From Promethearchaeota archaeon (lineage in GTDB: Archaea; Asgardarchaeota; Lokiarchaeia; Sigyniarchaeales; SOKP01), in NCBI GenBank assembly GCA_029838195.1, contig JALGVJ010000004.1, positions 32,001 to 96,000 of the forward strand: DNA of 64,000 bases. Direction: 5' to 3'. Every line of letters begins with the position of its first letter. Position 1 is the first letter of the stretch. Shown one piece after another: positions 12,181 to 63,702 of this stretch. Both the position numbers and the translations under genes were made by a program. The notes below the pieces were generated by a model that searched no databases, was not told the DNA's origin, and saw nothing but the letters and a program-made list of their open reading frames with translations.

Positions 12181-12687
12181 GCGATTCTCCTCCTTGATCT
12201 AACTTTTTTTCTGCCTTCTTTTATGAGTAAGAGATCCCCATGCCTTTTTCCTAGAGGCAATTCTCGTTGAGCTTCCTTTATAAATAAAGCAATCCGTTGG
12301 AGTGGCTCGAGACCCCCCGAAAAAATTAAGATCGAGGAAATAGGTGATTACCTTGAATGCGCTTGATAATCATGCGAGTCAAGCTAATTTAAGGAAAAAT
12401 TAACGAGTTTAGAGGAAGTGAGAGGGTAAAAATAATAAAAGAATTTCATTTAGAAGATTGAAACAATACATCGATTAATTTTAGTTTTTTATTTTTCCTA
12501 AGAATCGAAAGGACTAAAGTTTCTTGTAAAAATTGAAAGGTGAAGGTTTTTTGGATAATCACGTGATTAGGTCATGATAAATAAGGTTCTTGAGGATGTT
12601 TGAACAATTTATAATGATTTAATTTTAATAAAACAAGAATCAAATGAAATTTTAGAACATGGGCAGAATTCATAGATTATTGGAGAG

Positions 12688-31187: not shown

Positions 31188-33440
31188 TCAAGTCCTCTTG
31201 TATATGAATCGTTCCCAACTCGATTTGTTGGGGAGTTCCTCCTTCATGCCCTTTCTCTTGCGTATTTCAAATATTAGATCCTTTTCAATATTAGCAGGAA
31301 CTTTTTCAAATCCTTTAAATTCATAACCGAAGAATGCTCTACCTTGCGTGGTGCCTCTAATTTCATCTGCAATTCCAATCAATTCAGCAGCAGGAAGCTC
31401 TCCTTTTACTCTAACAAATTCTCCTTCAGGAATCACGTCAATAACTTGCCCTCGATGTTTATTTATGGTTGAAATAACACCACTTTCAGTACCTTGGGGA
31501 GTTTTAACATCTATAATTTGTATGGGTTCATATAAATGAGGATCTGCATCAAGCATCGCTAAAGAAAGAGCGGAATACGTCATACTGGCAGTTTGAGCAA
31601 ATTGCGTGTGGCGAGGATCTTCGTGAATTGTTAAATCCGTGAACACGGCTTTTATTCCCATGGCTGGTTCCCGTGCTAAAATGCACTCTTCCGTCCAACT
31701 TCGAAAGGCACTCACCAAATCGTTCTTAATTCGATCGAATCGTTGTAATCCGGAAGCTCCATTAACCAAGGCATTTCCTTTATACACGTCAACGATTCTT
31801 CTAGCTTCTTTCATATCCCATCCCGCTTCTTTATTAAGAATTTGGGCACGTTCTTTTTCATTCATCAAATCCGTGATCTTTCCCGTTTCAATTAATTTTT
31901 CTGCAACGGGATCAAGGGGTTCTACGTATAAGAGAATACGATTATGCGCATTAGAAGATTTTGTATAAAATTCTCGGCTTTTCTTGGTAACTTTTTCCCG
32001 ATAGACGATAATTGGCTCTCCAACATCAATAGGCACTTGATTGTTTATCCTCTTGGTTAGAATTTCGATCTGGAGGGGATCAATCCCACTTAAAATGTAT
32101 TCTTTTGATTCTTTATTTAGTCTAAATTCCGCAGTAGGATCTGCTTGAAGCCATTTTGAAACCACTTCTCCTAATTTAGCTAAATCTTGAGGATCCTTTG
32201 GTTTTATGCTTCTTGACACGACTGCTTCACAAGCATATTGAATCTTTTCAAAAGAAGGAATTAAACTTGCCTCTTCCTTATCTTTTGGAACAGCATTTGC
32301 AGCGATGAAGGTCTCACCTGAAGGACAAATAAAACCATATAATGCAAACAAGTTTCCCGCCGGAATTTGAGGAATATCGAGGATATCCGTAATCTCCATT
32401 ACACCCAAGCGTTTAATGCGTTTTTTAACTCTTTGGTTTACCAAGTATAAAACTTCGGATAAATCTAAGGTCCCTGAAAACACCCTGCCAATAAGCGTTG
32501 GACGATACCCTTGTTTGGGATCCAAAAAGATTTTCGTGATCATCCCATAAAGAGGCCCATTTGGATCACATTTTACGAGAGCTTGTCCTAATTCGGAATT
32601 TAAATCGCCCCCCCAAATCTTAGGTATTCGATATTTAGCCGCTTTAATGGGATCGGGTAAGTGATCTACCACCATTCTTAAAATGGGTTCATCAAGGGGC
32701 AAATTCTCTCGTAACCAGAGTATATCTCCTTCATTATATTTCTCAAATACGGTTATCGGAGTAATTCCTTTCTCTTTCAAGATTTCATACGTAAATCCCC
32801 AACCATGCTTTGCTGAACCGATAGCTACACTATTTTGAGCGAAATCAATGCTCCAATTTGAACCTTTTGGACGAACTTTCTTTATTAAATCATTCACTTG
32901 CTTGGTAATCTCATCAATTCGAGCATAGGTCTTCTGAGGAGTTAATTTTAATTCACTAATTAACCGATCCACTTTATTAATAAAGAGTACCGGTTTACAA
33001 TATTCTTCTCCTACAGCAAGGCGTATGTTAGTTTCAGTTTGTGTCATTACACCTTCGAGGGCATCAACTAAAATGATTGCACCATCACTCCCTCGTAAGG
33101 CACGAGACACTTCTCCTGTAAATGAAATGTGCCCCGGCGTGTCATTTATTTGTAAAATATAAGGCTCTTTATCATCAGGTTTGCGTGGATCGGTAAAGGA
33201 AAGGAGAACGACCGAGGTAAATATCGTGATTCCTCTTTCTTGTTCTTCCTCGTCACTATCTGTCATTTGTAGTTGTCCGGCATCCTCTTCGCGCATTAGA
33301 CCCGCCCTTCTCAGCAGATAGTCACTTGCGGTTGTTTTCCCGTGATCTATGTGCGCTACAATTGAGAAAATACGCTTTTTTTCATAACTGCCCTTGGTGA
33401 CTAATCGAGAAATCTCATCAGCGTTTTTTACTTTGACCAT
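31188..33440 (-). CDS. fusA: Translation elongation factor 2 family protein (aEF-2 or its aEF-2p paralog)
   Basis: AHIDHGKTT, ERGITI, DTPGH and NKVD; domain IV HEDPRHTQ; domain V RGTTQGRA. Confidence 0.92.
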   Translation of the reverse strand: MVKVKNADEISRLVTKGSYEKKRIFSIVAHIDHGKTTASDYLLRRAGLMREEDAGQLQMTDSDEEEQERGITIFTSVVLLSFTDPRKPDDKEPYILQINDTPGHISFTGEVSRALRGSDGAIILVDALEGVMTQTETNIRLAVGEEYCKPVLFINKVDRLISELKLTPQKTYARIDEITKQVNDLIKKVRPKGSNWSIDFAQNSVAIGSAKHGWGFTYEILKEKGITPITVFEKYNEGDILWLRENLPLDEPILRMVVDHLPDPIKAAKYRIPKIWGGDLNSELGQALVKCDPNGPLYGMITKIFLDPKQGYRPTLIGRVFSGTLDLSEVLYLVNQRVKKRIKRLGVMEITDILDIPQIPAGNLFALYGFICPSGETFIAANAVPKDKEEASLIPSFEKIQYACEAVVSRSIKPKDPQDLAKLGEVVSKWLQADPTAEFRLNKESKEYILSGIDPLQIEILTKRINNQVPIDVGEPIIVYREKVTKKSREFYTKSSNAHNRILLYVEPLDPVAEKLIETGKITDLMNEKERAQILNKEAGWDMKEARRIVDVYKGNALVNGASGLQRFDRIKNDLVSAFRSWTEECILAREPAMGIKAVFTDLTIHEDPRHTQFAQTASMTYSALSLAMLDADPHLYEPIQIIDVKTPQGTESGVISTINKHRGQVIDVIPEGEFVRVKGELPAAELIGIADEIRGTTQGRAFFGYEFKGFEKVPANIEKDLIFEIRKRKGMKEELPNKSSWERFIYKRT

Positions 33441-52942: not shown

Positions 52943-53024
52943 TTTGCATGCTTTAGAAGGAACCATAAAAAATTTATTGAAAATAGTATTAATTTACATA
53001 ATTCCATTATCAATTCCACTTATC

Positions 53025-53525
53025 ATGGCAAAGAAAAAGAAAAAGGACTTGAATGAAGATCTCGAAAACGATCTCGAATTTAGCGCAGATGTCCCGATCG
53101 AAAGCGTGTATCCTAGCATTAAAGAACAACCCTCCGAAAAAGAAGCAGCAAAAGCAGAAAAAGACGATGCCACCATCGAAACAATTCCCGAGGTAGAATT
53201 AGAAGGAGCGCTAGAGGAAGAAGGACCGGAAAAACCAAAATATAAATATTTAGATCTTCACCTCTTAAAAGATCCCGAATTTAATAACTATGAATTAACT
53301 ATTGAAGGGCAATCTCACGGATTCTGCAACTTATTGGTAAAACACTTGTTACAAACCGAAGGCGTTATTTCCGCCGCCTATAAATCTACCGAACTCGAAC
53401 CCTCTAAAGTATTCATCCAAATTCGGGATAATTTTGATATTAAAACCATTCTTCAAAAAAGCATCGGATCTTTTCGAGAAGAAGTTACTAGTGCCCAAAA
53501 ATTATTCGAACAACTTCTCAGGTAA
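53025..53525 (+). CDS. rpoL: RNA polymerase subunit Rpo11 (L) with acidic N-terminal extension
   Basis: IEGQSHGFCNLLVKHLL...VISAAY; follows csl4. Confidence 0.8.
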   Translation: MAKKKKKDLNEDLENDLEFSADVPIESVYPSIKEQPSEKEAAKAEKDDATIETIPEVELEGALEEEGPEKPKYKYLDLHLLKDPEFNNYELTIEGQSHGFCNLLVKHLLQTEGVISAAYKSTELEPSKVFIQIRDNFDIKTILQKSIGSFREEVTSAQKLFEQLLR

Positions 53526-53583
53526 TTATATCTTCTCTCTATTTTTACCAATTTTAACGTGTTTCATAAAATACCGCACTCCC

Positions 53584-54036
53584 ATGTCATACAAATTCTT
53601 GCTTCAAGACCTTCAAGAAACCCCAATATCAATTGGAACGGATAAAGGCCTCGCCAAAATTGGAGATGCCCTTGTAAATCTCTCTTATTCCATTGCTAAA
53701 TCCATCATCATGTCTAAAAATAATGATACTAATAAAATCATCCGAACGGGTACTAAAGTCAGCAAAGAAATCCTCTCCAATGCGTTAAAACAAGCAGGCT
53801 TGAAATATTTTGCCAAAAAAAGAGCGGATGCTCATGACATGGCAAACACCGTAGAAGCAATTCTCGCTTATCTATGGTTGAAAAACGCCATTTCCTTGGA
53901 CGAGATCGTCTCTTTCTTGTCAGAACACTTGAAAGGTAATTTGTCAAATAGAAAGGATGAAATCGCCATTGCCATTCAAGCCTTCAAAAATCTCCTCCTC
54001 CACGTCAAATCTTCACTACCCACAAATACCCCGTGA
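53584..54036 (+). CDS. Archaeal RNase III-domain (mini-III-like) protein
   Basis: DKGLAKIGDALVNLSYS and ANTVEAILAYLWL motifs. Confidence 0.8.
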   Translation: MSYKFLLQDLQETPISIGTDKGLAKIGDALVNLSYSIAKSIIMSKNNDTNKIIRTGTKVSKEILSNALKQAGLKYFAKKRADAHDMANTVEAILAYLWLKNAISLDEIVSFLSEHLKGNLSNRKDEIAIAIQAFKNLLLHVKSSLPTNTP

Positions 54037-54051
54037 AAAAGGCACCTCCCA

Positions 54052-54612
54052 ATGAAAGATCATCCCATCACCATCGGCATTGATGATTCCCCATTCCACT
54101 TTGATGATGCCTCCAGAAAAACCTCCCTCATTGCCGTGGTCTGCCAAGGTACTCGATTAATGAACGTATTGAAAGCTTACATAACAATTGACGGAAATGA
54201 CTCCACCTCAACCATCATACACCTCGTTAAACAAGCAGAAAAACACGTCCAGTACATCCTCCTCGATACAATCACCTTCGGAGGATTTAATATTTGCGAC
54301 CTTGCCACTATTTACCACGAAACCCATAAACCCGTCATTGCCGTGAGTGAAAAAAAAATTGACTTGGACGGCGTGAAAATGGCTCTCCTTAAGAAATTCC
54401 CCAGCACCTACCATGAAAAATTATATAAAATTATCAACGCTGGAAACCTTTTTGAAATAACTATTAAAACGGCAGGAGGGCCATCCACGATCTACCTCCA
54501 CTTAAAAGGAATCTCCTTAAAAGAAACAAAATCTTTATTAGAAAAAATTTGTATCGACTCTAAGCTCCCGGAATGCATTCGCATGGCTCACATCATCGGA
54601 AGAGCCTTGTAA
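54052..54612 (+). CDS. DUF99 family (endonuclease V-like) protein
   Basis: IGIDD, IDGNDST, LLDTITFGGFN and KLPECIRMAH motifs. Confidence 0.9.
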   Translation: MKDHPITIGIDDSPFHFDDASRKTSLIAVVCQGTRLMNVLKAYITIDGNDSTSTIIHLVKQAEKHVQYILLDTITFGGFNICDLATIYHETHKPVIAVSEKKIDLDGVKMALLKKFPSTYHEKLYKIINAGNLFEITIKTAGGPSTIYLHLKGISLKETKSLLEKICIDSKLPECIRMAHIIGRAL

Positions 54613-54701
54613 AATCTTTTGACGCATTATGAGACCAAGTCTACTTCCCATCTTCCACCTTTAACTTCCTGAAGATGTACTTCCCTTGATTCCCCCTTAA
54701 T

Positions 54702-55205
54702 TTAATTAGAAATCTCCGCCTCTAAGATGGACTTTATCTTATCCCTCATCTCTCGCCGAATCGCCGACATTCCATAGGTTTTTATCCCCAATCTAGCTTG
54801 TACCTCATCCACGCTCATCGCCCCTTCCAAATCTTGCTTGTTTGCAATCGCAATCACCCGTGAACCCAATTTTCTCGAATATCTCTGGCAAATCTCCCGT
54901 GTTTTCTCCACATTACCCTCCGTAGAATCACATACCAATACCGTCAAGCCTACGCCCCTTAAAAAATCTTCCCATAAAAATTTAAACCGCTCCTGACCCG
55001 ACATATCCCAAATAGCACACTTTACCCCATTTAATACCGAATCCTCGATCTCCACGCCAATCGTCGGAGATTTCACGCTTTCTTTCCCAAGTAATAAGCC
55101 AACTAAGGTAGATTTACCTACCCGACTCTCTCCTATGAACGCAATTTTGCTCTTTCCTAACCCCATCCCTTCTTTCTCCCCACTTGCTCCTTCATTTTTC
55201 ATCAT
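54702..55205 (-). CDS. Arf/Rab-like small GTPase
   Basis: GESRVGKST, PTIG, WDMSGQERF, NKQD and SA motifs. Confidence 0.92.
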   Translation of the reverse strand: MMKNEGASGEKEGMGLGKSKIAFIGESRVGKSTLVGLLLGKESVKSPTIGVEIEDSVLNGVKCAIWDMSGQERFKFLWEDFLRGVGLTVLVCDSTEGNVEKTREICQRYSRKLGSRVIAIANKQDLEGAMSVDEVQARLGIKTYGMSAIRREMRDKIKSILEAEISN

Positions 55206-55710
55206 TTATAATAAATCGAATGACTATCAAAAAAGTAAATAATATCCGTGTATTACTCTTCGCTTTATCATTTATTTCCCCCATTTTCTATCAACTCACA
55301 TTTCCTCGTATCCTCCACGGTCTGCTCTCCTCTCAACCAATCTTACACCTATTCTCTCCATGATTTCACCCAAACTTGAACTACTCCTAAAATAGAAAAA
55401 TAAATGATTCAATTAATACATTAATTAATTTAATTAATAGATCTATTAAAAAAAATAAATGAATGAAAAAATAACACACTTAGCCATAAAACTTTCCAAA
55501 AAAGTTAATCCAATAAGAAAATTACCATGCCTCCACAAATCTGTATTCTTCTTTCAAAAACCCTAAACCTCATACCCTCTCAAGAGCATGAATTCCCTTG
55601 GTTCAAGCCTAAAAAAAGAAAAATAAAAATAGAAAAATGATAAAAATGAATCTCCTTAATCGTAAGAATAATAGAAAGAAAAAATTTTTATTATTACATG
55701 AGGCTGCCAA

Positions 55711-57015
55711 TTAACCCGTAACAATATCCTTTACAATACCCACGGCTACAGTCCTCCCCATATCCCGAATTGCAAAACGTCCCATCTCTGGAATCTCCTC
55801 ATATTTCTCAATGCAAAGCTTCTTGATCGGTTTGAACTTCACGATAGCTGACTCGTTCTTCTTAAGAAACTTTGGATTATCCTCAATAACGGCTCCCGTC
55901 TTTTGATCAAGTTTTTTCATCAGCTCCACGAATTTCGCCGCCACCTGTGCCGTATGAGCATGTATCACCGGCGTATACCCTTGTGCAATCGCCGTAGGAT
56001 GCCAAATCACGATGATCTGGCCCACCCACTCACCATTCGGTGTGATTACCGTGGGCGGATTGTCCGGATGACCAATGCAATCTCCACGCCCCACATCCTT
56101 CATCTGTAATCCACGAATGCTAATGCCGATATTGTCTCCGGGTATCGCCTCAGGAATCTCCTCATGATGCATCTCGATAGACCTTACCTCTCCTTGAAAC
56201 TCCGTTGGCATTATGATAACTTTATCTCCCTTTTTCAATACACCTGTCTCCACCCTGCCTACCGGAACTACACCCGTACCCTTGATCTTATACGCATCTT
56301 GAATGGGCAACCGCAACGGCTTGTCAATCGGCTTCTCCGGCACCTCAAACTTGTCTATCGCCTCGATTAACGTCGGTCCATCATACCACGGCATCTTATC
56401 CGATTTAGTCGTCAGATTTTCCCCTTTCAATCCGCTAACGGGAACGAAATGAATTTTCTTTATCGGAAATCCTATGTTCCGCAAGAGTTGCGAAACTGCC
56501 TCCTTGCACTCGTTAAATCGATCCTCACTATACTCATATGCATCCGCCTTGTTGATCGCCACCACTAATTGCTTCACCCCTAATGTCTGAGCTAAATACG
56601 CATGCTCCCTCGTCTGCCCGTTTGCTGCTATTCCCACTTCCATTTCTCCTTTTTTTCCAGAAACGACAAGCACCGCAGCGTCCGCCTGGCTTGCGCCCGT
56701 TATCATGTTCTTAACAAAATCGGCATGCCCGGGAGCATCGATAATGGTAAAGTACTTGCTCGGAGTTTCGAATTTTCGGAAAGCAAGATCGATGGTAATG
56801 CCTCTTTGGCGCTCCTCTTTTAGTCTATCGAATACATATGCGTAGGACCACGAATCTCTATCGTATTCTTTTGCGATTTTTTCGAGCTCTCTTGCTTCTC
56901 TTTCCGATACAGCGCCAGTTTGTATGAGAAGAGCGCCCATCATTGTTGATTTGCCGTGGTCGATGTGTCCGATGATGACGAGGTTAAGATGGGGTTTTTC
57001 TGTTTTAGACGACAT
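55711..57015 (-). CDS. tuf: Translation elongation factor 1-alpha
   Basis: GHIDHGKST, RGITID, DAPGH, NKAD and GRFAIRDMG motifs. Confidence 0.98.
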   Translation of the reverse strand: MSSKTEKPHLNLVIIGHIDHGKSTMMGALLIQTGAVSEREARELEKIAKEYDRDSWSYAYVFDRLKEERQRGITIDLAFRKFETPSKYFTIIDAPGHADFVKNMITGASQADAAVLVVSGKKGEMEVGIAANGQTREHAYLAQTLGVKQLVVAINKADAYEYSEDRFNECKEAVSQLLRNIGFPIKKIHFVPVSGLKGENLTTKSDKMPWYDGPTLIEAIDKFEVPEKPIDKPLRLPIQDAYKIKGTGVVPVGRVETGVLKKGDKVIIMPTEFQGEVRSIEMHHEEIPEAIPGDNIGISIRGLQMKDVGRGDCIGHPDNPPTVITPNGEWVGQIIVIWHPTAIAQGYTPVIHAHTAQVAAKFVELMKKLDQKTGAVIEDNPKFLKKNESAIVKFKPIKKLCIEKYEEIPEMGRFAIRDMGRTVAVGIVKDIVTG

Positions 57016-57111
57016 TTATCTTCCACTAAATTTGTAATTTTAATTGATATAGATAAAATTTGATTCAGAATGTTAAAAATATACAGTTGATATTGTAATT
57101 AAATGATAAGG

Positions 57112-57128
57112 AATATAAATTTTTTTCG
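57112..57128 (-). promoter_or_regulatory. BRE plus TATA promoter of EF-1alpha
   Basis: Minus strand reads CGAAAAAAATTTATATT about 97 nt upstream of the ATG. Confidence 0.5.
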
Positions 57129-57387
57129 ATATTTTTTTAAATTTTTAGGTTGAGAGAGGGGAGGAGAATAGATTTCGGATTTTTTTGAGTTTCTAAGGTC
57201 CGAGAAAGTGATGTTTATGAAAATCATGAGAGATTTTTAAGGTTTTTTGAATTTGAATTCAAAATTGGATATTAAATTATTATTGACATCTTTTAAAAAA
57301 TGATCAATTTTAATCGCGTGCTGATGTAAAAAATAGGAATTTTGCTTCCATGATGTATGTATTGAACACGTTCATTTATTAATAAAT

Positions 57388-57807
57388 TTAAGAAATTTGC
57401 GAATTTCCTTTCAGATCTTCCAGGAATTCTTTTTTATTCTTTTTAAGGAGCGAAAAGATATCGTTAATTTCTCGAGTGAAAGAGATAATTTCGTGATTGT
57501 TTAACATGAAACGAGGAGGAATTTTTTTGAAAAGGAATTCCCGAAAAACGGAATCGAAGTCATATATATTGACCCTTGTTTCTCGAAAGAAATCCAGTAG
57601 GTGATGGAGGTACAATGCTTTGACATGGATATATTGGGATGAGAACTTTTTTTCCTTGTCTTTCTTGTAAAAATATTTTAATTGTCTGAGGGGAGTAGGG
57701 TCGTTTTCATTATAATAAAATTTCAAAGAACTTAAATTTTCATGTAAAAAAGATGATAAAAGTAAAAAGAGATACGATCTTAAATATATTAAATAGAATA
57801 ACTTCAT
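57388..57807 (-). CDS. Possible hypothetical protein
   Basis: About 139 open codons filling the tuf-aIF2alpha gap; no motif; start uncertain. Confidence 0.35.
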   Translation of the reverse strand: MKLFYLIYLRSYLFLLLSSFLHENLSSLKFYYNENDPTPLRQLKYFYKKDKEKKFSSQYIHVKALYLHHLLDFFRETRVNIYDFDSVFREFLFKKIPPRFMLNNHEIISFTREINDIFSLLKKNKKEFLEDLKGNSQIS

Positions 57808-57843
57808 GTTAATTATTTTGATGGTGATAGGAGAGGAATCATC

Positions 57844-58659
57844 ATGGTACGGTCTCGGACGAAGTTTCCATCGGAAGGGGAGTTTGTAGTAGCGCGAGTG
57901 AGAGAGATTCAAGATCAACACGTATACGTGGATTTGTTGGATTATGAGGGATTAGACCATGAAAAAACGGCACGAGGAATGGTCCACATCTCAGAGATAA
58001 GCTCTAGATGGGTGAAAAACATTCGAAATTATCTTCGAGAGGGGCAACGAGTGGTCTTACGTGTTTTACGAGTAGATCCCGTGAAAGGTCACGTGGATTT
58101 ATCTTATCGGCGAACGAATTCTGCCCAGCGAGAAAATCGCATGAAAGAATGGAAATATGCGATTAAATATGAGAATTTATTACAATTTTTAGCAGAAGAG
58201 ACAAACATTACGCTAGATGAAGCCTATGACATGATTGGATGGCCTGTATTAGACATGTATAACACGTATCAAGAAGCCATTGAAGAGTTAAAGGAGAATG
58301 GAGAGGAAATCCTTAGTAAATTGAAAATTCCACCTGATATCAAGGAGAAATTTTTAAAAATCGTGGATGAAAATATTAGTATTTCTACTGTGAGCGTGAA
58401 AGGCAGGATAAGGCTTACGATTCGAACGGGAGATGGGATTGAGAAATTAAAAAACATTTTATTAGAAGCAATGAAAGTGATTGACAATCCAAAACCAACG
58501 AGGAATTTAAAGTTAATTTATTTAGGTGCTCCTTATTATAAAATAGAAGTGATTTCAAAAGATTATTTAGATGCGGAAAACATTTTATCGGAAGTTTTAG
58601 ATACCATAGAATCCAAGGTGAAAGAAGTGGATGGTGTATTTGAGTTCATTCGTGATTAA
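57844..58659 (+). CDS. eif2a: Translation initiation factor aIF2 alpha
   Basis: FPSEGEFVV, VHISEISSRWVKNIR, KGHVDLS and GAPYY motifs. Confidence 0.95.
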   Translation: MVRSRTKFPSEGEFVVARVREIQDQHVYVDLLDYEGLDHEKTARGMVHISEISSRWVKNIRNYLREGQRVVLRVLRVDPVKGHVDLSYRRTNSAQRENRMKEWKYAIKYENLLQFLAEETNITLDEAYDMIGWPVLDMYNTYQEAIEELKENGEEILSKLKIPPDIKEKFLKIVDENISISTVSVKGRIRLTIRTGDGIEKLKNILLEAMKVIDNPKPTRNLKLIYLGAPYYKIEVISKDYLDAENILSEVLDTIESKVKEVDGVFEFIRD

Positions 58660-58697
58660 CTACACCATTTATAAAAAATAAGGATAAAGGGGACAAA

Positions 58698-58907
58698 ATG
58701 GTAAAATATCTCATGAAATGCCCGAATTGTGGAGAATATAGATTATACAACCCCGAGATGAGATGTAAGAAATGTGGAAGCGTTTTAATCAATCCACGTC
58801 CGGCGAAATTTTCTTTAATTGATAAATACGGCAAGCATCGATTGCAATATTTTAAAGAGAAATATCCACGCCCCGCTTTGGAGGAACAACCATCAAAAGC
58901 TAGTTAA
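58698..58907 (+). CDS. nop10: H/ACA RNP protein Nop10
   Basis: KCPNCGEY...CKKCG...PAKFSLIDKYGKHR; follows aIF2alpha. Confidence 0.92.
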   Translation: MVKYLMKCPNCGEYRLYNPEMRCKKCGSVLINPRPAKFSLIDKYGKHRLQYFKEKYPRPALEEQPSKAS

Positions 58908-58933: not shown

Positions 58934-59707
58934 TCATTCCTTGATAAGAGGTTCTGCGAACTTTTCTGAAATTAATATTTTCGCATTTTTAAAAGGCAAG
59001 CATGCGATATCTTCTTTTTCAAAAGGTCCATAGTTTAATAGATCAATTCCTACTAATGCAGGAGTTTCTTTTAAAAATCTCACGATCATATATTCCTGTT
59101 TTTCCTCTTGTTCTAATTTTTGAGAAGGAAATTTAGAAAGGACGCCTTCTTTGATGATCTCTACATTTGGGGTGGAAGTAGAAGGGGCTAAATGGGAAGG
59201 CGGAAGACTAGATGGAGAAGAAGAGGGCCCAACTTGAGAATTCTTTTCAAGAAGCGTTTTTTCAGACAATTCTTCCTTCTCAATGCCTTTTTGAACGGTT
59301 TTAGAGGATACGAGCTGAGGAACAGGCATTTCTTGTACGATCTCGTGAAGCGAATGACGTAATACTTTTTCATATCCTTTTAGCGAACTCATGATGTTTT
59401 GATACAATAATTTTTCGGGTTCAATGAGAGCTTTTAAGTCAAGTTCTTGTAAAGAGAGAGCCGCATCTAAAATTTTTTGTTTTCTTAATTCAAGTAAATC
59501 ATCAAAAAGAAAATCGAAATTATTTTTAATTACTTCAAAAACATAAGATTTTATTTCATCCTCATGATTTAATTGAAAATTTTGAAGAAATGATTTACTA
59601 TTTTTGAAGCGTTTAAAATCTGCGTCCGTTAATGGGAATATGTTCTCATTTTCTAACTCTTTTAACCATCGCTCATACAAGCGCTCATATTCTGATTTGA
59701 TATTCAT
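58934..59707 (-). CDS. gins15: GINS15 (Gins51) subunit
   Basis: WLKE...LRKQKI A-domain, Ser/Pro linker, B-domain VRFLKETPALVGID..YGPFEKEDIACLP; downstream of priS. Confidence 0.88.
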   Translation of the reverse strand: MNIKSEYERLYERWLKELENENIFPLTDADFKRFKNSKSFLQNFQLNHEDEIKSYVFEVIKNNFDFLFDDLLELRKQKILDAALSLQELDLKALIEPEKLLYQNIMSSLKGYEKVLRHSLHEIVQEMPVPQLVSSKTVQKGIEKEELSEKTLLEKNSQVGPSSSPSSLPPSHLAPSTSTPNVEIIKEGVLSKFPSQKLEQEEKQEYMIVRFLKETPALVGIDLLNYGPFEKEDIACLPFKNAKILISEKFAEPLIKE

Positions 59708-59808
59708 GGATAAGGTTCAAGTTCAAGAATAATTTAAATCTAACCCGCAAGAAATTACGCCAACCATTATTAGTATAATGGAAGGTAAACTACTTAAACA
59801 TATTTGAA

Positions 59809-61086
59809 TTAAATGGTTATTGCCACCTCCTTACTGAGAAAGAATACGGCTACATGATTGGGAACTTCTATAATTGCATCTTTGGTGTAGGGTCCATAGG
59901 TTTCATTTTTCATGGTAATTATCGGAACTTTTGGGACTGTGATTTTTAATTTTTGAAGATTATCACTTTCAAATACGATTGGATCAAGGGTTTCATCATT
60001 TTCATTTAAAGGATCGAAGTCTTCTAATTGTTCGTGGGAAAGTTCTGAAACTTTAAAACCCGTTTTTCCGTGTAAGGAGCCCGGATAACGTATTAACCGA
60101 TGGATATCTATTGAAACGGGTTGATCAATCTCCACTGAGATTTCTTTTACTACTGCTTCTAAAAATTTTTTCCATCGACTCATTGTCATGTGTTCAATAT
60201 TCCATATATTAGTTTCATCCTTGTAGATGACAGATAAAAGGTGATTTCCATTTCGCATGAAAGCATCTGCTATATTAGCACTAAATCCTACTTTTCGTTT
60301 ATCCGTTAAAAAAGCTTTAATCTCAGAAGGAGATTTATTTAATAAATCTTCAATGAATTGCAAAATTTTTCTTGACCATCCAATATTGGATTTGGATAAT
60401 CCATAAATGACACCTCCTTTTTCATTTAACCCAAGTAATTCAAGAGTGAGATTTTCACCCGTAAGATAATCCACGATTTCTCGTCTTTTTTCACTGGATA
60501 ACATGCGCAATTTTTCATCTTCTAATTTCACGTGATAGCCCCGATGTCCTGAAAAAGCACATTTTATTCTGGATTCTTCAATTCCAAAATCAGGAACAAG
60601 AAAATGATTAATTACTTTGAACACTTCTTTTTTAGCCTCGTTAAGACATCGTTTACAGATCCACGTGAGGGTACTTAATTTAGGACTTCCGCATTTTTTA
60701 CATGTATTTACCATTCCCTTGCCTTTAGCACCGCAACTTTTACAATACCAAAGGTCATGATTTTCTTTACAAGGTGTATAAAAATGATCCACATCAATAT
60801 CTATTAAAAAATCACAGCCCTTGTATTCTTTTTGATTCATGTCTTGATTCTCTGGATAATTATATAAAGAACCGCTGGCATACACGTGTCTTGGGCTCTT
60901 TTCAATTAAAAAATTTTTTAATTCTTCTTCAGATTCAAATCCCACGTGCCTGATCATCATGGGCTTTTCCCACGGGATAAATCCAAATTCTCTCTGTTGT
61001 AATGAATTGATGGTTGGGAGTTCACTTTTCTTTTCTTGATAATAAGCCTTAAATAATCGTTGTAAAAATATTTTAGAAGATGTCAT
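59809..61086 (-). CDS. priS: DNA primase small (catalytic) subunit
   Basis: REFGF, IDIDVD, FSGHRGYH and IDQPVSIDIHRLIRYPGSLHGKTG motifs. Confidence 0.95.
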   Translation of the reverse strand: MTSSKIFLQRLFKAYYQEKKSELPTINSLQQREFGFIPWEKPMMIRHVGFESEEELKNFLIEKSPRHVYASGSLYNYPENQDMNQKEYKGCDFLIDIDVDHFYTPCKENHDLWYCKSCGAKGKGMVNTCKKCGSPKLSTLTWICKRCLNEAKKEVFKVINHFLVPDFGIEESRIKCAFSGHRGYHVKLEDEKLRMLSSEKRREIVDYLTGENLTLELLGLNEKGGVIYGLSKSNIGWSRKILQFIEDLLNKSPSEIKAFLTDKRKVGFSANIADAFMRNGNHLLSVIYKDETNIWNIEHMTMSRWKKFLEAVVKEISVEIDQPVSIDIHRLIRYPGSLHGKTGFKVSELSHEQLEDFDPLNENDETLDPIVFESDNLQKLKITVPKVPIITMKNETYGPYTKDAIIEVPNHVAVFFLSKEVAITI

Positions 61087-62261
61087 GACTTCTCTTTCTC
61101 ACCCGTTTGTTGGGGCCTCGATGAACGATAATTCTTTATTTGGACATAAAAAAGAGGATGTCGGATGGTTCTTTGTTCCTGATATGTTTTAGAATAATAT
61201 CCTTTCAAGCAGATGGGATCATCATAGTGCTTCGCTTTACACAAAGTCAATGATTTTAAAGTAGCACAAGAATGGGGTGTATATTGCTTTTTTTTAGCAA
61301 ATTGTACTTGATAAGTAGTAATATCTCTATTAAAATCAGGTAATTTAATAAAAAGATTTACAATGTTTTCTTCAGGAAAATTAAAGGAATTGAGAAAAAA
61401 TACTAAAAAGAGTCTCTCCACATGGGTAATATTTTGTCCTTCTTCTATTTTTTTTATTATCTCTTTAACACAAGGGGGAAACATCTCTACAAGGTTATTA
61501 TTTTTATCAAATTGAAGTTCAGTAAAATAATTTATGTCTTCTTTCTTTAATTCCCATCGATTTGAAATCTCATCATACAACTCCCTAAATTCATTAATTC
61601 TCAGCATTCCTTCCTTAAAAGTTTTGACATTTTCAACGTTTCTATTTTCGTAGGGAAATACTTTTTGGCGAACGTACTCTTGTATTAAACGTGCTAATCG
61701 TCTTTCTTGTAAGTAGACAAATCCTTCATGAAGTGCATTATTTATTAACTTTCCATTTGGATCTCTAAGAGAACTCGCGAGTTCTAAATAATCAATATAA
61801 TGAATTCTAAAATGAGTACTGAGTAGAAGAATCTGGTGTTTAGACGTAATTTTTTTATAAATCCAAGGGGGATCGTTGTATTCAATATTGATTTTCAAAT
61901 CCGAACAAATTTCATACAAATTATATTCATTTTCCTGGAGAAGAAGAGCATAATTTAATTTAGAGTATAAATTAGCAACCCGATGAGAGATCATGTTATC
62001 ATTTAAACAATAGAGCAAGATTTTTAAGGTTAAGTATAAATAGATGTTTAACTCATCAATCTTATATTCTGAAAAGGTTTCGCTATTATTAAACGCATTT
62101 TCGATTAACAGAATGATTCTTTTATATAATTCTTCTCCATTTTTCCCGGTTAACACGGTCGTGATAAATTCCTCTGTACTTAAAACTTGGAGATGAGGAT
62201 AATATAATTTTAAGGAAGGAAGCCATGGATACCGATATACCAATTCTCGTCTAATTTCCAT
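61083..62261 (-). CDS. priL: DNA primase large subunit (Fe-S)
   Basis: YPWL, FPPCV, HVERL, PDFN, YTPHSCATLK, four C-terminal Cys and HPL. Confidence 0.92.
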   Translation of the reverse strand: MEIRRELVYRYPWLPSLKLYYPHLQVLSTEEFITTVLTGKNGEELYKRIILLIENAFNNSETFSEYKIDELNIYLYLTLKILLYCLNDNMISHRVANLYSKLNYALLLQENEYNLYEICSDLKINIEYNDPPWIYKKITSKHQILLLSTHFRIHYIDYLELASSLRDPNGKLINNALHEGFVYLQERRLARLIQEYVRQKVFPYENRNVENVKTFKEGMLRINEFRELYDEISNRWELKKEDINYFTELQFDKNNNLVEMFPPCVKEIIKKIEEGQNITHVERLFLVFFLNSFNFPEENIVNLFIKLPDFNRDITTYQVQFAKKKQYTPHSCATLKSLTLCKAKHYDDPICLKGYYSKTYQEQRTIRHPLFYVQIKNYRSSRPQQTGEKEKS

Positions 62262-62374
62262 GGCTTTTTTAACACCTTCTTTTTGGATTTGAAAGGGTTA
62301 TTAACAAGTTAAAAGAGGAAATTTTAAAAAATTAAGACTCTATAAATTTTCTATTATTTGAGAAAAAACCGATT

Positions 62375-63172
62375 TTAGTACTCTTCCTCTTCTTCCCCGA
62401 ATTCTGCTTCTTCCACGCGAGGCGCCAAGAAATAAATGAGTTCTCCTCCTTCTAACAAATTAAATTTCATTTTTAAGGGATGATCCGTGCGTGTAGAAAT
62501 TTCTAATTTCTCAGTAATGGATGATAGATTTAAAATTGCTTTTAGAAAAGTAAGAGAATATGCTCCCTCGCTCATTTCTGAGATATTAGCATCGAGTAAA
62601 TCATCTAATGATAAGCTATATTCCATTTCCCCTATTTGCCCGGTAGAACTAAAGATCAAGCCTTCATCTTTTACTGCCTTTATATTAATGAGCTCTGAAT
62701 AGATTTCCGCATCTTTAATTGCTTCTACGAGATATTCCGGTGACATTACCCAACTTACTGGATATTCACTGTTAAGGATGTTATCAATGGGTAACTCTTC
62801 AAATTCCATATCCAAAACAGCCAAACTAAACGTGCGGGTCCTAGAAACACCTTCCTTTTGCATTTTAATAAGGATTTTTTGGTCTTTTTCCTTGAAATTT
62901 AATTCAATAGAATCATCCGGCGCACTTCTTTTTAATATCTTATTTAGATCATCTAAATTTAATCCAACTTTAGATTCCTGGCTACATTTAAATTCATCGA
63001 AATTCTCTTTCTGAATCGAGAGTTTTAAAAGACAAATCCGACTGGGATCCATTGCAGAAATAGAAAATTCAGCAGGTGTCACCTTGAATTCCGTCTCATC
63101 AATAATGTTAGCCAAGGTCTCAATAATAACTTTTAAAATCCGACTATTTTCTAATTTTAATGTAAATGAAAT
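62375..63172 (-). CDS. pcn: DNA polymerase sliding clamp PCNA (probable ATT start at 63172)
   Basis: AMDPSRI, GLNLDDLNKILKR, YSLTFL and YFLAPRVE; frame extends upstream as (M)SFTLKLENSRILKVIIETLANII. Confidence 0.93.
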   Translation of the reverse strand: MSFTLKLENSRILKVIIETLANIIDETEFKVTPAEFSISAMDPSRICLLKLSIQKENFDEFKCSQESKVGLNLDDLNKILKRSAPDDSIELNFKEKDQKILIKMQKEGVSRTRTFSLAVLDMEFEELPIDNILNSEYPVSWVMSPEYLVEAIKDAEIYSELINIKAVKDEGLIFSSTGQIGEMEYSLSLDDLLDANISEMSEGAYSLTFLKAILNLSSITEKLEISTRTDHPLKMKFNLLEGGELIYFLAPRVEEAEFGEEEEEY

Positions 63173-63369
63173 TTATAAGCACCTTGTTTCCTTTTTTTAT
63201 GATAAGATAGAGTTATTCACACTAATTAAAAAATTTAATATTAACCTTTTATTAAACAATAATAATATTAATACCCTTATTATTCTAATGTTCAACTTAA
63301 ACTTTTAATAGTTATTTTAAATTTCTATCCTAAATTATTTTTACCATGTTCCTTCTAAGGTGATTATAA

Positions 63370-63702
63370 ATGGAATCTCAACACGCTCGGCAAAGAACTA
63401 TCGAAGATATTATAAACAACGATATTTACATTCAAATCACGGGTTATGTAAAAGAATTACTCGAAAATAATCAAATCATTTTGAAGGATAATACAGGTAA
63501 GATTAAAATTGATCTCGGTGAAATTGAATTTCCCTACAAAAAGAACGATTTGATTAATGTCATTGGAGAATTAAACATTACCATGGCAGGGGAAAAAATC
63601 ATCCAAGCTAAAATAATTCAGGACATGAGGAATTTAAACTTCGAATATTATGAAAAACTTTATAAAATCAAGAAAGAATTCATTAAACCGGATTCTTATT
63701 GA
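63370..63702 (+). CDS. Single OB-fold protein, RPA14/RPA3-like
   Basis: IQITGYV...LKDNTGKI...INVIG OB strands plus C-terminal helix LNFEYYEKLYKI. Confidence 0.7.
   Translation: MESQHARQRTIEDIINNDIYIQITGYVKELLENNQIILKDNTGKIKIDLGEIEFPYKKNDLINVIGELNITMAGEKIIQAKIIQDMRNLNFEYYEKLYKIKKEFIKPDSY

Follow-up and report, generated by a model that had tools for sequence, protein, structure and literature searches.

The 64,000-nucleotide stretch analysed here (the window), positions 32,001 to 96,000 of contig JALGVJ010000004.1 from a Promethearchaeota archaeon, carries an abrupt flip in strand composition inside tuf, the gene for archaeal EF-1alpha. Raw GC skew in 1-kb windows runs from -0.49 at 54.5–55.5 kb to +0.33 at 57–58 kb. 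A likelihood change point computed on silent and intergenic sites of the plus strand puts the switch at 56,689 (confidence interval 56,620–56,731), about 110 codons into tuf, whose third positions switch near codon 110–125. G/C counts on the plus strand are 109/357 to the left of 56,689 and 185/81 to its right (Fisher p = 9e-35, with sites treated as independent). From about 53 kb the DNA is C-rich alike in plus-strand genes, minus-strand genes and spacers (Table 1). A mis-join at the switch is excluded because contigs from two other studies cross it without differences (X2 56145-56835; X4 56545-56750). The C-to-G inversion that the initial annotation saw near 56.7 kb is thus real, larger than chance and, as it also claimed, independent of gene orientation.

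Table 1. Features at the 56.7-kb flip and at the second centre in the window; G/C counts are read on the plus strand, at third positions within genes.
Feature	Coordinates	Strand	G/C on plus	Remark
Left flank	52944..56689			C-rich on plus, hence G-rich on minus, the strand reading away from the centre; fades by ~53 kb
RNA polymerase subunit L-like gene (rpoL)	52944..53525	+	G17/C44	Outer left flank
Ribonuclease III-like gene	53584..54036	+	G17/C46	Left flank
DUF99 / endonuclease dU gene	54052..54612	+	G16/C72	Left flank
Arf-family small GTPase	54702..55202	-	G15/C63	Left flank
Intergenic	55203..55710		G40/C105	
tuf (archaeal EF-1alpha)	55711..57015	-		
tuf, 3' three quarters			G47/C135	
Switch point	56620..56731			Inside tuf; no origin recognition box (ORB) or distinctive repeat
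tuf, 5' end			G28/C11	
Right flank	56690..58700			G-rich on plus; weaker; fades by ~59 kb
Intergenic	57016..57400		G64/C26	
Conserved open reading frame (ORF)	57388..57921	-		Between tuf and aIF2a; unannotated, no Pfam match; start probably downstream of 57921
aIF2-alpha (aIF2a) and Nop10	57844..58907	+	G65/C30 (aIF2a)	
GINS51, PriS, PriL, PCNA (minus) and 110-aa OB-fold gene (plus)	58934..63702			Conserved neighbourhood, outside the skewed zone
Second centre (~12,295)	12181..12470	+		Orphan CRISPR-leader-like sequence, one repeat remnant, after tfb

The flip is one of many. We scored G minus C per codon relative to genome usage for that amino acid, added intergenic bases, and scanned with 2-kb flanks the whole assembly holding the window (4.52 Mb, 94 contigs, 33% GC; 3,908 genes called by our own dicodon script, whose calls omit at least one real gene (57388-57921)). 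This skew-jump map, which the initial annotation had proposed, gave 50 two-sided sites that turn from C to G and 7 of the opposite polarity. The scan's z-values assume independent codons and are inflated, so that permutation is the safer guide: coding DNA alone held 30 C-to-G and 4 reversed sites, whereas 12 gene-order permutations gave 2–11 and 1–7. At least about 20 sites are therefore real; the lowest-scoring of the 50 may have arisen by chance, and we put the class as a whole at about 25–50 sites of one polarity. After correction for amino-acid content and codon usage, the 56.7-kb site is the second strongest genome-wide (z 13.2) and the site at 12.3 kb the fourth (z 12.6), the two sharing one polarity, as had been noted from the window. 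Out-versus-in log odds decay over 2.6±0.4 kb at the selected sites and 1.6±0.4 kb at tRNA genes, and skew is at zero beyond ~8 kb from the centres (baseline -0.02±0.04). Silent GC rises by about 0.09 per codon at the centres with the same tent shape. The flips are dispersed genome-wide, independent of gene orientation and of one polarity. At about 33,500 in the window, a weaker, one-sided G-rich step lies at the start of an EF2 paralogue (z 4.8).

Many centres coincide with heavily transcribed loci, a link the initial annotation had suggested. Eight of the 50 have a tRNA-like gene no more than 500 bp away, against 0.34 expected; others fall at the 5' end of 23S rRNA (16S lies at a contig end), at three CRISPR-leader-like stretches, in tuf and at the 3' end of actin. 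One of these leader-like stretches is the 12.3-kb site, which is 73% identical over 158 nt to the leader of a long CRISPR array on contig C48. The proposal that both jumps in the window sit at core information genes therefore holds for tuf, which contains its switch, and not for tfb, past which the other flip lies. Beyond tRNA and CRISPR-leader sequence, k-mer counts, all-versus-all blast, ORB patterns and repeat searches found no motif shared among centres. A bacterial promoter scan was uninformative (12 against 9.6 expected), and ordinary intergenic regions and divergent promoters showed no weak-centre signal.

An unselected test on tRNA genes gave the same picture. Aragorn with long introns made many false calls, and we used Rfam matches instead, of which 25 of 29 passed the cut-off (150 of 340 candidates scored; about 21 loci after clustering). 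Right-minus-left skew was positive at 23 of the 25. All four side-by-orientation classes of tRNA flank were skewed (-0.119, -0.071, +0.067 and +0.101 per codon). The skew appears both upstream of the tRNA and downstream of it, and does not follow the direction of the annotated gene transcribed.

The footprint consists chiefly of added G on the outward-reading strand. At four-fold sites within 1 kb of centres, outward-strand G is 0.31 against a background of 0.17, C is 0.17 against 0.20, and A and T both fall. At two-fold sites over the same distance C/(C+T) remains at about 0.24, and G/(G+A) rises from 0.22 to 0.41. Expressed against A/T, outward-strand G gains about 2.2-fold and C changes 0.85–1.1-fold, with similar values in G070, a genome of another family. 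All eight four-fold codon families respond with no strong neighbour context, tRNA flanks have the same spectrum as the selected centres, and amino-acid content shifts near centres too. The mirror redistribution expected from fork direction alone, with G up and C down to match, was not seen in these spectra, which fit fork direction alone only with an extra, symmetric GC gain. We infer an added strand-specific flux that is probably mutational. Deamination during break resection was rejected on polarity: it would remove C from the inward strand.

The flip at tuf was not seen in orthologous genes. Codons 115–434 of tuf have third-position G/C of 117/39 (ln G/C 1.09), whereas 62 orthologues average -0.26±0.30 with a maximum of 0.33. 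DUF99 (-1.68 against -0.32±0.43 in 46 orthologues) and Arf (1.29 against 0.31±0.31 in 53) also fall outside the orthologue range, and aIF2a (0.63 against 0.30±0.35 in 80) falls inside it. The log odds ratio (lnOR) between flanks is 1.79 here and at most 0.83 in 22 relatives, G016 excepted (1.65, on 10 inward sites). The 5' end of tuf reads -1.16 here and -0.65±0.43 in orthologues; C-leaning 5' ends, being present in relatives too, may shift the apparent centre into the gene. Spacers on either side of tuf differ by several kilobases among otherwise syntenic relatives (L032, L036, L037, L040-L043), which suggests that insertion-prone DNA flanks the gene. Part of the supposedly intergenic DNA at 57.4–57.8 kb is a real minus-strand gene: ORF 57388-57921 (third positions G24/C46 on its own coding strand) has counterparts at 7 tuf loci of relatives with 44–53% identity, and with 61% in L399.

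The replication genes nearby do not account for the flip, as the initial annotation had supposed they might. GINS or PriS adjoins aIF2a in 80 of 80 relatives, and the enolase-to-PCNA gene order is kept within the family; the tuf flip is not, and was not found in any of the 62 syntenic tuf orthologues. Absence from orthologous regions is an outcome that the initial annotation had itself listed as refuting its reading, and it holds at this locus. A cluster of PCNA, PriS and Gins15 with aIF2a and Nop10 is general in archaea according to the relevant section of PMC2643942. The 'RPA-like' gene of this neighbourhood (63370-63702, plus strand) encodes an OB-fold protein of 110 aa that matches Ten1_2 and BOF weakly.

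Flips of the same kind recur in other Asgard genomes, with centres that move between lineages. We compared tRNA flanks across genomes, dropping two contig-end loci in each comparison. The lnOR is 0.83 in the genome holding the window (G000) and 0.31–0.49 in five of 20 relatives: G025, G032 and G038 (z 4.5–5.1), and G009 and G019 (z 2.5). Among four genomes of other families in the phylum, a set in which clustered loci overlap, G070 is strongly positive and G085 null. A 400-kb scan of G070 found 10 two-sided sites and 2 reversed, several on tRNA genes, with a range of about 2.5 kb and raised GC; 400 kb each of G024 and G032 gave 0 and 1 sites. G070 also has a strong A-left/T-right flip that makes its outward strand G+T-rich, the textbook sign of a leading strand. 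Between 1.40 and 1.68 Mb of G070 (C1:1400001-1800000; L379-L398), long-range cumulative skew is mostly made of lopsided local peaks, and the baseline away from peaks is 0.008 per codon. The trait is patchy. An unexplained reverse sign at tRNA flanks occurs in G048 (all sites, z -3.6; L351-L377) and G054 (four-fold sites, z -6.3; L319-L348).

We consider it somewhat more probable than the contrary that the 56.7-kb flip belongs to a class of mutation footprints, short, two-sided and spread over the genome, left by outward, strand-biased DNA synthesis at transcription-stressed loci. Its polarity is that of a bidirectional origin, and its geometry is the one expected when new strands extend from one point in both directions. 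The skew fades within ~3 kb instead of running between origins, so ordinary forks that travel far do not explain it; the short range and one-sided G gain point to a special short stretch of synthesis. At some loci, many of them heavily transcribed (tRNA, rRNA, CRISPR leader, tuf, actin), synthesis would be primed repeatedly and run outward both ways. Priming would probably start from an R-loop or a RadA D-loop at places where transcription opens or breaks the DNA or causes forks to stall. The first 2–3 kb would be made in a strand-biased, less-corrected mode, and over time the outward-reading strand would gain or keep G and, in G070, lose A. The mutational nature of the footprint, synthesis as its cause and the priming step are all predicted from base composition.

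Composition cannot separate dispersed replication initiation from fork restart or break repair, and we hold both tentatively, at nearly equal strength. Of the earlier proposal of many dispersed initiation sites, the dispersal and the single genome-wide polarity stand; initiation fits no better than repair or restart synthesis. Restart predicts that the stronger flank follows regional drift, and in G000 the two showed no correlation (rho 0.01, n=41); G070 gave 11 of 15 against 2 of 7, a weak result that is partly circular with a boundary chosen afterwards. Further observations weigh against outward synthesis at stressed loci in general. Thirty-five of the 50 centres lack any annotated feature closer than 800 bp, and the centre's position relative to the transcript varies, being internal in tuf and 3' terminal in actin. 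Neither the main ribosomal-protein operon, where the profile is flat, nor several other genes for ribosomal proteins form centres, and SRP (signal recognition particle) RNA shows no flip on its testable side. Fifteen of the 20 relatives have |z| of at most 2.1 at tRNA flanks, many on 2–5 loci only; the same-genus genome G001 is near zero; and none of the tested repair or polymerase genes tracks the skew. The argument is compositional throughout, with replication, breaks and R-loops entering it as predicted participants.

Transcription itself is an unlikely alternative. Read-through from strong promoters, together with antisense transcription diverging from them, could leave the outward (non-template) strand exposed or direct repair to the inward one for 2–3 kb each way. 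The preference of centres for stable-RNA and leader promoters fits this, as does the G+T-rich outward strand of G070, which resembles the transcription-associated asymmetry reported in mammals. Yet genes transcribed towards a centre are at least as skewed as genes transcribed away, the coding strand of actin is C-rich throughout and that of tuf over its first 110 codons, and ordinary divergent promoters and the ribosomal-protein operon show nothing. Strand-biased gene conversion, in which heteroduplex at recombination hot spots of a multi-copy chromosome is repaired towards C on the inward strand, seems less likely still. It would account for the tent-shaped rise in silent GC (0.09–0.10 per codon), for a range matching that of conversion tracts and for gaps on both sides of tuf that vary by kilobases among relatives; it requires a putative strand-specific repair bias and leaves the strong A/T flip of G070 unexplained, and the ploidy of Asgard archaea is, according to PMC12993045, unreported.

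It is very improbable that an Orc1/Cdc6-ORB origin of the classical kind next to the GINS-primase-PCNA cluster, or a small number of them with long-running forks, explains the flips. The polarity is right, and a cdc6 gene is found 0.7 kb from one centre (C86:78159). Against this, the flip is absent at 62 tuf orthologues, so that its position is not conserved, and skew is gone by ~8 kb, leaving no long replichore. The genome's only two cdc6 genes are on contigs other than the window's; just one of the 50 centres lies near either, and the second cdc6 shows no flip on its testable side. The initial annotation saw no ORBs, and ORB-like motifs are indeed not enriched at the 50 centres (1 against 0.5 and 1 against 2.1 expected), although a divergent Asgard ORB could escape the patterns used. 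Such an origin is largely refuted at the 56.7-kb locus, and efficient classical origins are disfavoured. Least probable of all is an artefact, whether codon bias of single genes, selection for polar motifs, chance or mis-assembly: gene-level variation alone yields 2–11 such sites in permutations and tuf 5' ends lean to C in relatives too, but 30 sites against 4 reversed in coding DNA, the agreement of intergenic DNA with genes in both orientations and independent contigs across the switch refute it for the strongest sites.

Stable DNA replication primed by R-loops in rnhA mutants of E. coli reportedly has the same outward geometry, arising from dispersed priming. In the account given in PMC5333045, RadA-dependent origin-free replication in Haloferax volcanii is likewise dispersed and primed independently of sequence. 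Unlike the footprint described here, both are mutant states with no compositional footprint described for them; G000 has RNase HI- and HII-type genes, the latter with an insertion. Archaeal origins with an ORB and a DNA-unwinding element, bound by Orc1/Cdc6 (outlined in PMC5333045), share the polarity and, at one centre, the nearby cdc6; they differ from these tens of sites without ORB enrichment, long replichores or, at tuf, conserved position. Fork stalling at tRNA genes in yeast and the error-prone restarted or break-induced replication described in sections of PMC6358216 give tRNA-centred, two-sided, distance-limited aberrant synthesis, there over 10–75 kb and with no evolutionary scar in base composition described in those sections. 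The bidirectional asymmetry at human CpG islands (Polak and Arndt 2009, in passages of PMC2817419) also has promoter-linked, GC-raised centres, a sharp polarity flip and outward A>G excess, read there as origins plus gene conversion; it amounts to ~9% and stays constant over hundreds of kilobases, whereas ours is about two-fold and fades in 2–3 kb of a gene-dense archaeal genome.

The flips are real, genome-wide and recurrent in other Asgard genomes, and they are not tied to the replication gene cluster; their mechanism is the part we infer. In the literature searched, which left subscription papers and supplements largely outside, we found no earlier description of local, tRNA-centred skew flips in archaea. 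Chromosome-scale skew is absent in Loki, Heimdall and Odin genomes and global skew is present in Freya/Atabeya, according to the skew passages of PMC11291895, and a 2026 review (PMC12993045) notes, where it treats the subject, that there are no data on Asgard cell-cycle organisation. The signal supplies coordinates, in several lineages, at which synthesis is predicted to start or restart, through a cheap scan applicable to every archaeal genome. It is possible, though we would call it doubtful, that some Asgard archaea start replication at tens of dispersed, ORB-free sites set by transcription at tRNA, rRNA and other strong loci, with a distinct strand-biased opening phase of 2–3 kb. Initiation of this kind would bear on the origin of eukaryotic multi-origin replication, as a prokaryotic precedent for sequence-independent origins of the eukaryotic type, mappable from sequence alone; restart or repair would instead mean that the flips record, in sequence, conflicts between transcription and replication in archaea. 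G070 also shows that lopsided local peaks can add up to most of the cumulative skew of an Asgard genome, which calls for caution.

Repair, replication and polymerase gene content was surveyed across genomes as a possible correlate of the skew. MutS occurs in 40 of 41 and NucS in one (not G000), with 2–4 copies of Cdc6 in 40 of 41; RNase HII and Pol Y occur in 15 of 15, Pol B in 14 of 15 and an RNase HI-type gene in four of five. Amino-acid proxies for thermophily do not single out G000. Its RNase HII gene (C23:64590-65216, minus strand) is interrupted within its conserved DEAGR-G motif by an insertion of 30 nt that keeps the reading frame and includes a stop (L311-L314). G011, G018 and G020 have an insertion at the same position; those of G000 and G011 form a hairpin. 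In G004, G016, G086 and G089 the match is longer and has one stop. This insertion, which does not track the skew, is a candidate small intron in a protein gene.

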